The translations under genes and the position numbers were made by a program. From the NCBI GenBank assembly GCA_964625025.1, contig CAZUZR010000001.1, positions 1,456 to 54,584 on the forward strand: a DNA stretch of 53,129 nucleotides, written 5' to 3'. The notes under the pieces were generated by a model. That model ran no database searches, was not told where the DNA came from, and worked only from the letters and a program-made list of their open reading frames with translations. Shown here piece after piece: positions 270 through 552 of this stretch. How positions within the stretch are numbered: the stretch's first letter is position 1; every line of letters starts with the position of its first letter. Source of the stretch: an uncultured Planctomycetia bacterium. Lineage in GTDB: Bacteria > Omnitrophota > Gorgyraeia > Pluralincolimonadales > CAZUZR01.

Positions 270-552
270 TGGTGGGCAGGGAAGGATTCGAACCTTCGAA
301 GGCATAGCCGCCAGATTTCAAGTGCCCTCAAGTTACCTTAAGGCTTGGACTATCTCATCATCCTCAAAAATATGCAAGGATGGTGGGCGCTTAGTCTCTG
401 CACCTTCCCCGACGTAACGTCGGGGCTTGGCTCAGGATTATCCTCAAAACCTTAAGGACTTCCCTGAATTCACCCACTTTTCCATCTAATATTGCTATTA
501 GACGCTGCGTAATCACACAGTCTGGTCCATTTGGCCACTTTGGTACCTGCCC
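270..552 (-). tRNA. tRNA-Tyr (GUA), class II with long variable arm and encoded CCA, interrupted in the anticodon loop by a 198-nt group I intron; exons 517..552 and 270..318
   Basis: Exon 1 is GGGCAGGUACCAAAGUGGCCAAAUGGACCAGACUGU. Exon 2 is AAAUCUGGCGGCUAUGCCUUCGAAGGUUCGAAUCCUUCCCUGCCCACCA. Joined, they give an 85-nt Tyr cloverleaf with stem CCAGA/UCUGG, loop CUGUAAA, T-arm GAAGG-UUCGAAU-CCUUC and acceptor GGGCAGG/CCUGCCC. Confidence 0.85.
319..516 (-). ncRNA. Group I self-splicing intron (IC3-like, ORF-less, 198 nt) in tRNA-Tyr
   Basis: The 5' exon ends in U and the intron ends in G (..CACUUG). The helices that can be drawn are:
- P1: CUGU/GCAG with a U.G pair at the splice site
- P2: GUCUAAUA-GCAA-UAUUAGAU, with a GNRA loop
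- P3: GUGGGUG/CGCCCAC
- P4: UUCAGG/CCUGAG
- P6: CCCCGAC-GUUAC-GUCGGGG
- P7: GACU/AGUC
- P8: AUCCU..AGGAU

The block GAGCCAAGC...GAAGGUGCAGAGACUAAGCGCCCACC resembles, from memory, the Azoarcus and Anabaena tRNA intron cores. Confidence 0.8.

Follow-up and report, generated by a model that had tools for sequence, protein, structure and literature searches.

The gene for tRNA-Tyr(GUA) in the DNA considered here is interrupted between U35 and A36, that is, within the anticodon itself, by a compact group I intron that carries no open reading frame (ORF). The DNA is a stretch of 53,129 nucleotides (nt) of contig CAZUZR010000001.1 (GenBank assembly GCA_964625025.1) from an uncultured bacterium of the phylum Omnitrophota, and this whole stretch is called the window throughout. 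It is a segment of a bacterial chromosome in which all genes lie on the minus strand, those for FtsH, PolA, MetH and formate-tetrahydrofolate ligase among them. Very probably, the intron splices itself by the canonical two-step reaction initiated by guanosine, restores the anticodon loop in doing so, and is, within its lineage, an immobile passenger passed on vertically and lost on occasion.

The split gene has the following parts.

517..552, minus strand: 5' exon of tRNA-Tyr(GUA), 36 nt, placed by ARAGORN on spliced and on genomic sequence; it holds the 5' strand of the acceptor stem, the D arm, the 5' strand of the anticodon stem, and C32, U33, G34 and U35.
319..516, minus strand: group I intron, 198 nt, without an ORF, recognized by RF00028, ARAGORN and covariation.
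270..318, minus strand: 3' exon of tRNA-Tyr(GUA), 49 nt, placed by ARAGORN on spliced and on genomic sequence; it holds A36, A37 and A38, the 3' strand of the anticodon stem, a 13-nt variable arm, the T arm, the 3' strand of the acceptor stem, A73 and an encoded CCA.

When 552..517 and 318..270 are joined, ARAGORN finds an 85-nt class II tRNA-Tyr(gta), the variable arm of which is long and the acceptor stem 7 bp. Given the genomic DNA and allowed to consider introns, the same program returns tRNA-Tyr i(37,198). These are precisely the exons, the intron and the product that a first-pass annotation, made from the letters of the sequence, had proposed. At its default settings, ARAGORN missed the tRNA-Tyr in the window and reported a tRNA-Thr(UGU) at 561..635 and a tRNA-Met at 18845..18921.

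The insertion breaks the U35/A36 bond of a loop that reads CUGU/AAA (the slash marking the break), and the ligated exon junction is CUGU-AAAUCUGG. No other break position yields a U at the 5' splice site, a terminal G in the intron and a GUA anticodon. The U and the G, both of which had been pointed out in the first pass, are U35 and G319, the last base of the intron and its omega G. The Rfam model for group I introns (RF00028, Intron_gpI) matches 527..326 on the minus strand with 105.7 bits (E = 1.7e-26) over its full length, model positions 1-253; its gathering score is 50. With a full-length score above that threshold, a U.G wobble in P1, the omega G and the core with its P3/P7 pseudoknot all present, the element belongs to the group I family, as first proposed.

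The helices of the ribozyme, all on the minus strand, are these.

505..520: P1, CUGU/GU (520..515) with the guide strand ACGCAG (510..505); loop GAUU.
485..502: P2, UCUAAUA (502..496) with UAUUAGA (491..485); GNRA tetraloop GCAA.
383..477: P3, GUGGGUG (477..471) with CGCCCAC (389..383), enclosing P4-P6 and the 5' strand of P7.
432..467: P4, UUCAGG with CCUGAG in the Rfam register (467..462 and 437..432), enclosing P5.
Within P4: P5, GUCCUUAA with UUGAGGAU (459..452 and 447..440); loop GGUU.
402..431: P6, 3 bp, GCC with GGU (431..429 and 404..402), outside P6a.
Within P6: P6a, CCCCGACG with CGUCGGGG (425..418 and 414..407), including CCCCGAC/GUCGGGG.
347..398: P7, the pseudoknot, G(A)GACUA with a bulged A (398..392) and UAGUCC (352..347), enclosing the 3' strand of P3 and P8.
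Within P7: P8, CAUCCUU (382..376) with GAGGAUG (365..359).
320..346: P9.0, 3 bp, AAG with CUU (346..344 and 322..320), stopping one base short of the omega G.
Within P9.0: P9, CCUUAAG-GUAA-CUUGAGG (343..337 and 332..326), with a GNRA loop.

Every helix named in the first pass (P1, P2, P3, P4, P6, P7 and P8) is among them, its "P6" being the P6a of the present naming; P5, P9 and the 3-bp P9.0 were found in addition. The fold was examined in an alignment (MAFFT) of the window with 12 homologous introns from Omnitrophota metagenome-assembled genomes (MAGs), of the kind called type A below; each intron was flanked by 9 nt of either exon. Across the 68 pairs, 92.6% of cells hold standard pairs, against a mean of 83.2% in shuffled alignments; 31 pairs are altered on both sides, against 19.1; and the covariation score is 0.337, against 0.148. 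None of 500 shuffles attained the observed value for any of these three measures. As a control, the 3' partners were slid by 1-3 columns, after which at most 47% of cells paired.

The individual helices behave as follows. The wobble at the splice site, U517.G507, is kept as U.G in 13 of 13 sequences, while the first intron pair of P1 appears as GC, AU, CG and UA. Changes on both sides are seen in six of the seven pairs of P2, and compensatory changes in two pairs of P3, where 100% of cells are paired. Covariation extends to five pairs of P5, four of the five outer pairs of P6a, five pairs of P8 and four of P9 (again 100% paired), and P6 has compensatory changes too. The GNRA tetraloops on P2 and P9 are retained among the homologs. 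P4, P7 (its bulged A included) and P9.0 do not vary at all in the 13 sequences, as is expected for a catalytic core; P7 of group I introns houses the guanosine-binding site. Poor scores are seen for the inner pairs of P6a, those of P8 and pair six of P1. These scores are treated as alignment artefacts and not as evidence against the helices, because MAFFT does not align variable loops structurally.

The way in which such an intron would leave its transcript follows from the established mechanism of the family. Here, the guide GCAG would pair with the CUGU of the anticodon loop to form P1, placing U35 in the U.G wobble. An external guanosine held at P7 would attack after U35. G319, positioned by P9.0, would then take the place of that guanosine, and the free 3'-OH of U35 would attack before A36, ligating the exons to give the loop CUGUAAA. 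Removal of the 198-nt ribozyme would be required before the tRNA-Tyr could function. Throughout, the anticodon stem (CCAGA/UCUGG) would bridge the exons across the intron, and this stem probably stands in for a conserved P10. Such a bridging role has been shown for the tRNA-Leu intron of Anabaena (Zaug et al., 1993, cited in PMC3984707).

The genomic setting speaks to inheritance. At the DNA level, the split gene is matched best by loci in Omnitrophota MAGs, which are 72-79% identical to it over intron and exons. In many of these, a gene order recurs: FtsH, a dihydropteroate-synthase-like, pterin-binding enzyme, further genes, ACPS, NAD(P)H-hydrate dehydratase (nnrD), tRNA-Thr(UGU) and the split tRNA-Tyr. 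The proteins encoded by the syntenic loci are just 50-64% identical to those of the window. This synteny and the names given to homologs place the window in Omnitrophota. A survey of relatives for intron-less alleles, which the first-pass annotation had recommended, finds them in several syntenic loci of Omnitrophota (L123/L124, L126-L129, L130/L131 and L132). The mature tRNA-Tyr of an intron-less locus can be identical, around the site, to that of intron-bearing relatives, a pattern that would fit clean loss or gain with the exons unchanged.

One Omnitrophota MAG, JAZDFW01, holds two type-A split tRNA-Tyr genes on two contigs, at L036:2213-2520 (222-nt intron, 90.6 bits) and L087:1841-2132 (206-nt intron, 89.6 bits). 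L036 has upstream neighbors like those of the window; L087 showed none. These are either two copies of the gene or the product of a mixed bin.

The insertion site is not new. Williams (2020; bioRxiv 10.1101/2020.01.27.920355) extended the four classical types of bacterial tRNA intron to 21, and the seed Mba143.Tyr.4Ug of that catalog is a tRNA-Tyr intron at exactly the U35/A36 bond. The window has each of the features that define the Tyr.4Ug class: a tRNA-Tyr host, insertion after the fourth nucleotide of the loop, U at position -1 and an omega G. The first-pass annotation knew of no characterized intron at this site, but bioinformatically the site is characterized; the class was cataloged in 2020 and is widespread in uncultured bacteria, and the intron of the window is an ordinary further example of it. 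A search of the accessible literature found no paper on tRNA-Tyr group I introns besides that of Williams.

How widespread the class is can be estimated from a genome scan with a pattern anchored on the 3' strand of P7, the 3' exon and the T arm, using one genome per GTDB species. The scan yielded at least 120 loci. It favors introns in which the 3' strand of P7 contains AGTCC and the P9 region spans 20-50 nt, and its frequencies are lower bounds. Among the matches listed, 94 of 120 loci are tRNA-Tyr(GUA) genes split at CTGT/...G/AAA. In all 95 split tRNA-Tyr genes, the window now included, a U precedes the 5' splice site and a G ends the intron. They fall into three types by their cores, with loci counted among the matches listed.

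Type A: core GGUGAAUUCAGGG (GUGGGUG-AAUUCAGGGAA); Omnitrophota MAGs; 18 loci and the window; introns of 190-290 nt; 88-102 bits with RF00028.
Type B: core GGGAUAACGGUG (CUUUGG-GAUAACGGUGAA), the type of the published seed; MAGs of Patescibacteria and similar bacteria; 15 loci; introns of 184-228 nt; 50-63 bits with RF00028 where detected.
Type C: core CUAAUUCGGGG; MAGs of gut Clostridia and Bacilli; 61 loci; introns of 198-248 nt, and three of 602-621 nt; 36-42 bits with RF00028.

Types B and C mostly remain under the Rfam gathering score (35.9-63.1 bits), and Williams (2020) describes the Rfam model as weak on bacterial introns. The same pattern applied to viral contigs gave 13 matches, with no split tRNA-Tyr among them. 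In two Patescibacteria loci, ARAGORN alone calls a further split gene close to the split tRNA-Tyr: a predicted tRNA-Thr(GGU) with a 243-nt insert (L004:3529-3844) and a predicted tRNA-Arg(GCG) with a 189-nt insert (L100:6061-6323). The practical consequence of this distribution concerns annotation. Default tRNA finders miss such genes, and tRNA-Tyr will seem to be lacking from the genomes of Omnitrophota, Patescibacteria and many gut Clostridia unless introns are allowed.

As a discovery, of course, the intron itself carries small weight. Nor is its size a record. The first-pass annotation had placed it at the minimal end of known group I ribozymes, and it is indeed short (198 nt, against 205 nt for the Azoarcus intron); it is not, however, at the limit, since introns of 184, 190, 191, 193 and 195 nt occupy the same site, those of 184 and 191 nt attaining the Rfam gathering score. 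The type-A introns of 190-198 nt are naturally minimal ribozymes, rich in covariation, and as such suited to structural work.

The place of the intron among the other tRNA introns is less simple than its site. Over the positions of the window's intron, identity is 63-69% to the Williams seeds Lys.2Ug, Asn.4Ug, Phe.2Ug and Asp.4Ug, 59% to the Tyr.4Ug seed, and 58% to the Azoarcus-type Ile2.5Ug. The window and the Tyr.4Ug seed share the host gene, the bond (CUGU/...g/AAA), the U at -1, the omega G, the guide GCAG, a length near 205 nt and the lack of an ORF. They differ in core motifs, the seed being of type B (Patescibacteria MAGs) and the window of type A; this difference, with the 59% identity, places the window outside the lineage of the published seed. 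Such comparisons indicate that the Tyr.4Ug class is polyphyletic in sequence; it is defined by site, so the window stays a member.

The first-pass annotation had also likened the core to those of the IC3 introns in tRNA-Ile of Azoarcus and tRNA-Leu of Anabaena. The core shared with the Azoarcus type is real. Like the intron in tRNA-Ile(CAU) of Azoarcus sp. BH72, the window's intron is compact and ORF-less, lies in an anticodon loop after a U, and has a P9.0 as well as GNRA loops capping P2 and P9. The two share the core ...GAGCCAAGC...GAAGGUG(C/U)AGAGACUA...AUAGUCC, and also GCCAAGC...GAAGGUGCAGAGACUA. More generally, the window has the P6-P7 core sequence of IC3 tRNA introns along with their P2 and P9.0 and, like them, is without P5abc. 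The Azoarcus intron, however, sits in another tRNA and at another loop position (Ile2.5Ug, against Tyr.4Ug), and it differs from the window at J3/4 (AAA, against AAU in the window, where P3 is the 7-bp GUGGGUG helix), at J7/3 (GAC, against AG) and at J8/7 (AAGGCA, against AUGAGA). In the alignment of Williams, these three segments of the window differ from all four classical IC3 tRNA types. The 205-nt Azoarcus intron is proven to be self-splicing (PMC13168695), whereas splicing of the window's intron is predicted.

Three longer type-A introns (L016, L017 and L086, of 276, 250 and 290 nt) have two extra hairpins between P7 and the 3' strand of P3, for example UUCCGUAAGGAA and GCUUCAGUUAUUCUGGAGC; the compact intron of the window is without them. 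Two hairpins at this place are a feature associated with subgroup IA. Because of these hairpins, and because identity favors seeds from tRNAs for Lys, Asn, Phe and Asp, IC3 is no more than a candidate subgroup for the intron, although the Azoarcus-type core stands. The tRNA-Leu(UAA) intron of cyanobacteria and plastids (Leu.3Ug) offers another comparison. It too lies inside the anticodon (U34/A35, against U35/A36 here), and is ancient, vertically inherited and sporadically lost, much as is proposed for the window. It belongs, of course, to another tRNA and another lineage, and its seed Sel1.Leu.3Ug is identical at 63% of the window positions.

Upstream of the split gene lies a gene that raises the question of mobility. 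The neighborhood is as follows.

561..635, minus strand: tRNA-Thr(UGU), read as 635..561 (ARAGORN).
639..1052, minus strand: free-standing gene for a PD-(D/E)XK endonuclease, 137 amino acids (PF11645, match to PDB 2OST).
1054..1926, minus strand: gene for NAD(P)H-hydrate dehydratase (nnrD).

The endonuclease ORF is separated by 90 bp from the tRNA-Tyr gene, which lies downstream; the ORF starts 1 nt past the nnrD stop and ends 3 nt before tRNA-Thr. Its product scores 98 bits with PF11645 (PDDEXK_5), for which the threshold is 26.1, and matches PDB 2OST (E = 4.5e-10) with the D...QVK motif aligned and kept. A search of NCBIfam with the protein gave no match; its homologs bear the NCBI name "group I intron-associated PD-(D/E)XK endonuclease." The 2OST structure is presumably that of I-Ssp6803I, which serves the tRNA-fMet intron of Synechocystis as its homing endonuclease. 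I-Ssp6803I cuts the anticodon region of the intron-less tRNA-fMet gene. A reference for this system, Bonocora & Shub (2001), is listed in PMC3984707. Both systems combine a group I intron in a tRNA anticodon loop with an endonuclease of the PF11645 family. In Synechocystis, however, the endonuclease gene is inside the intron, while in the window it stands free, with tRNA-Thr between it and the split tRNA-Tyr. Moreover, PMC3384342 describes close homologs of I-Ssp6803I as generally cyanobacterial, whereas the clade of the window's endonuclease is found in Omnitrophota, mostly beside an intron-less tRNA-Tyr.

Within the Omnitrophota, the endonuclease gene always lies between nnrD and tRNA-Thr. 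Homologs at this position are 62-88% identical to that of the window, or 62-75% if the close relative L133 is excluded. On the latter figure, the endonuclease is better conserved than nnrD and ACPS (49-56%), which implies that it is under constraint or is spreading horizontally. Of six endonuclease proteins sampled from Omnitrophota, four adjoin an intron-less tRNA-Tyr (the four groups of loci listed above), and endonuclease and intron are combined solely in L122, L133 and the window. For the other 18 type-A intron loci among the matches listed, no endonuclease was found within the stretches examined; in at least eight of them, nnrD is directly beside tRNA-Thr and leaves no room for one. In one case, L126, a locus with the endonuclease and without the intron has a mature tRNA-Tyr identical, over 20 nt or more to either side of the site, to those of the endonuclease-free, intron-bearing L097, L033 and L031.

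Elsewhere, the arrangement differs. In 32 of the 61 type-C loci among the matches listed (L008, L011, L013, L023, L068 and L114, for example), the gene that directly follows the split tRNA-Tyr, on its own strand, is a homolog; the gap between them ranges from a few nt to some 250 nt and mostly stays below 100 nt. A homolog lies inside the 602-621-nt introns of three Bacilli MAGs (L024:48-733, L081:241-926 and L101:224-928), the only loci with an intron-internal gene. In one type-B locus, L066, of the Candidate Phyla Radiation (CPR), it is 9 nt upstream. When gut Clostridia were sampled starting from the endonuclease (four proteins; loci L147-L152 and L156-L161), all 12 informative loci had the order tRNA-Met, split tRNA-Tyr, endonuclease and then variable genes, an arrangement that looks like a linked unit of intron and endonuclease. 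One PD-(D/E)XK family that is found upstream of, downstream of or inside a split tRNA-Tyr in different phyla is a more interesting lead than the intron.

Several points weigh against the view that the intron is a self-splicing passenger on which the cell depends. The searchable literature contains no report of experimental splicing of any Tyr.4Ug intron. P10 is weak: the GAUU loop of P1 in the window could pair with AAUC of the exon, but a conserved P10 was rejected, the P1 loops of relatives (UAA, AAA and similar) being unable to form it. The intron appears dispensable to the lineage, although not necessarily to this cell, because relatives have intron-less alleles with identical exons. Further, the genome is seen here only as a 53-kb window. 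ARAGORN and Rfam find no second tRNA-Tyr gene within it, and an intact one may lie elsewhere in the genome. If so, the split gene might be a silent or decaying pseudogene while the intact copy serves the cell, and JAZDFW01, with its two tRNA-Tyr loci, illustrates that second copies can exist. Nevertheless, it would be a great surprise if this were the explanation. The exons are perfect, the catalytic core is invariant and the peripheral helices change only by compensatory substitutions; the locus belongs to a syntenic tRNA-Thr/tRNA-Tyr cluster that carries tRNA-Tyr in all relatives; and introns that score well (90.6 and 89.6 bits) interrupt each of the two copies in JAZDFW01. That the fold and the intact exons have been kept through long divergence argues for selection on splicing, and persistence at one locus with the fold maintained is the strongest indirect argument for it. 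How the bond came to be occupied is a question of origin, on which a further proposal is compatible with a self-splicing, vertically inherited intron. Introns with a GCAG guide could integrate after CUGU by reverse splicing at the RNA level, which would explain why three unrelated-looking lineages share one bond. Types A, B and C do share CTGT/...G/AAA, GCAG occurs within the first 75 nt of 91 of the 95 introns (window included, the others among the matches listed), and the seeds Lys.2Ug, Asn.4Ug, Phe.2Ug and Asp.4Ug are all nearer to the window's intron than Tyr.4Ug is. Still, a guide match of 4 nt is unspecific, the case is purely inferential, the association with an endonuclease in Clostridia offers an alternative at the DNA level, and the syntenic position in Omnitrophota is in keeping with vertical descent, for which invasion need not have recurred. 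Reverse splicing is an unlikely origin.

The remaining explanation gives the neighbor of the split gene a role. In collaborative homing, documented for phages (PMC3984707), the endonuclease encoded at 639..1052 would cut the anticodon region of intron-less tRNA-Tyr genes, the intron, by splitting that site, would protect its own genome, and repair of the cut would co-convert intron and endonuclease gene. The endonuclease and the ORF-less intron would then be, or recently have been, partners on a bacterial chromosome, and related loci would show every stage of assembly: endonuclease upstream (Omnitrophota, L066), directly downstream (gut Clostridia) and intron-internal (Bacilli MAGs). Several observations speak for this. 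The PF11645 score, the match to 2OST and the kept D...QVK motif identify the neighbor as a member of a homing endonuclease family; as in the phage systems, an ORF-less intron has a free-standing gene of such a family within about 100 bp; homologs flank or occupy split tRNA-Tyr genes in the Clostridia-type, Bacilli and L066 loci noted above; and the split gene upstream in every informative Clostridia locus is the pattern that the concept predicts (PMC3984707). The phage examples concern protein-coding genes, of course, and not a tRNA gene on a bacterial chromosome. More seriously, the premise of a shared target is contradicted for the clade of the window. Four of the six Omnitrophota endonuclease proteins adjoin an intron-less tRNA-Tyr, and in L126 the supposed target sequence is unchanged, so that an active enzyme of that specificity would cut its own chromosome. 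The other 18 type-A loci show no endonuclease in the stretches examined, with no room for one in at least eight, and the constant position between nnrD and tRNA-Thr would suit a free-standing element that has an intergenic target of its own. In view of the endonuclease-bearing, intron-less Omnitrophota loci, collaborative homing is improbable as the main explanation. On these comparisons, a mobility partnership in Omnitrophota is not supported. It appears more likely that the Omnitrophota endonuclease has its target elsewhere, for example at the junction that its own gene occupies, because cutting the intron-less anticodon region would destroy genomes that carry the endonuclease without the intron. 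The contrast between its persistence beside intron-less genes and the arrangements in other phyla could shed light on the ways in which homing endonucleases and introns come together and part.

Some other features of the window deserve mention. At 1..70, on the minus strand, tRNA-Thr(CGU) follows tRNA-Tyr and is cut by the end of the window; nine Omnitrophota loci sampled through their endonuclease (L122-L124, L126-L130 and L132) have tRNA-Gly(UCC) at that position. The 199-nt spacer between the two tRNA genes (71..269, minus strand) has an unusually stable predicted fold, at -55.7 kcal/mol (z = -3.95), and contains a perfect 14-bp hairpin, GUAAGGGGAGAAAC/GUUUCUUCCCUUAC, and a long hairpin of 80 nt; a permissive search of 1..900 gave no credible Rfam family for it. 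A scan of 1..2400 for promoters and terminators yielded nothing informative. Farther away, 11002..14691 on the minus strand encodes a protein of 1229 amino acids with a glucodextranase-B-like domain and a DUF900/Tle3-like phospholipase domain, which resembles a lipase effector of type VI secretion.

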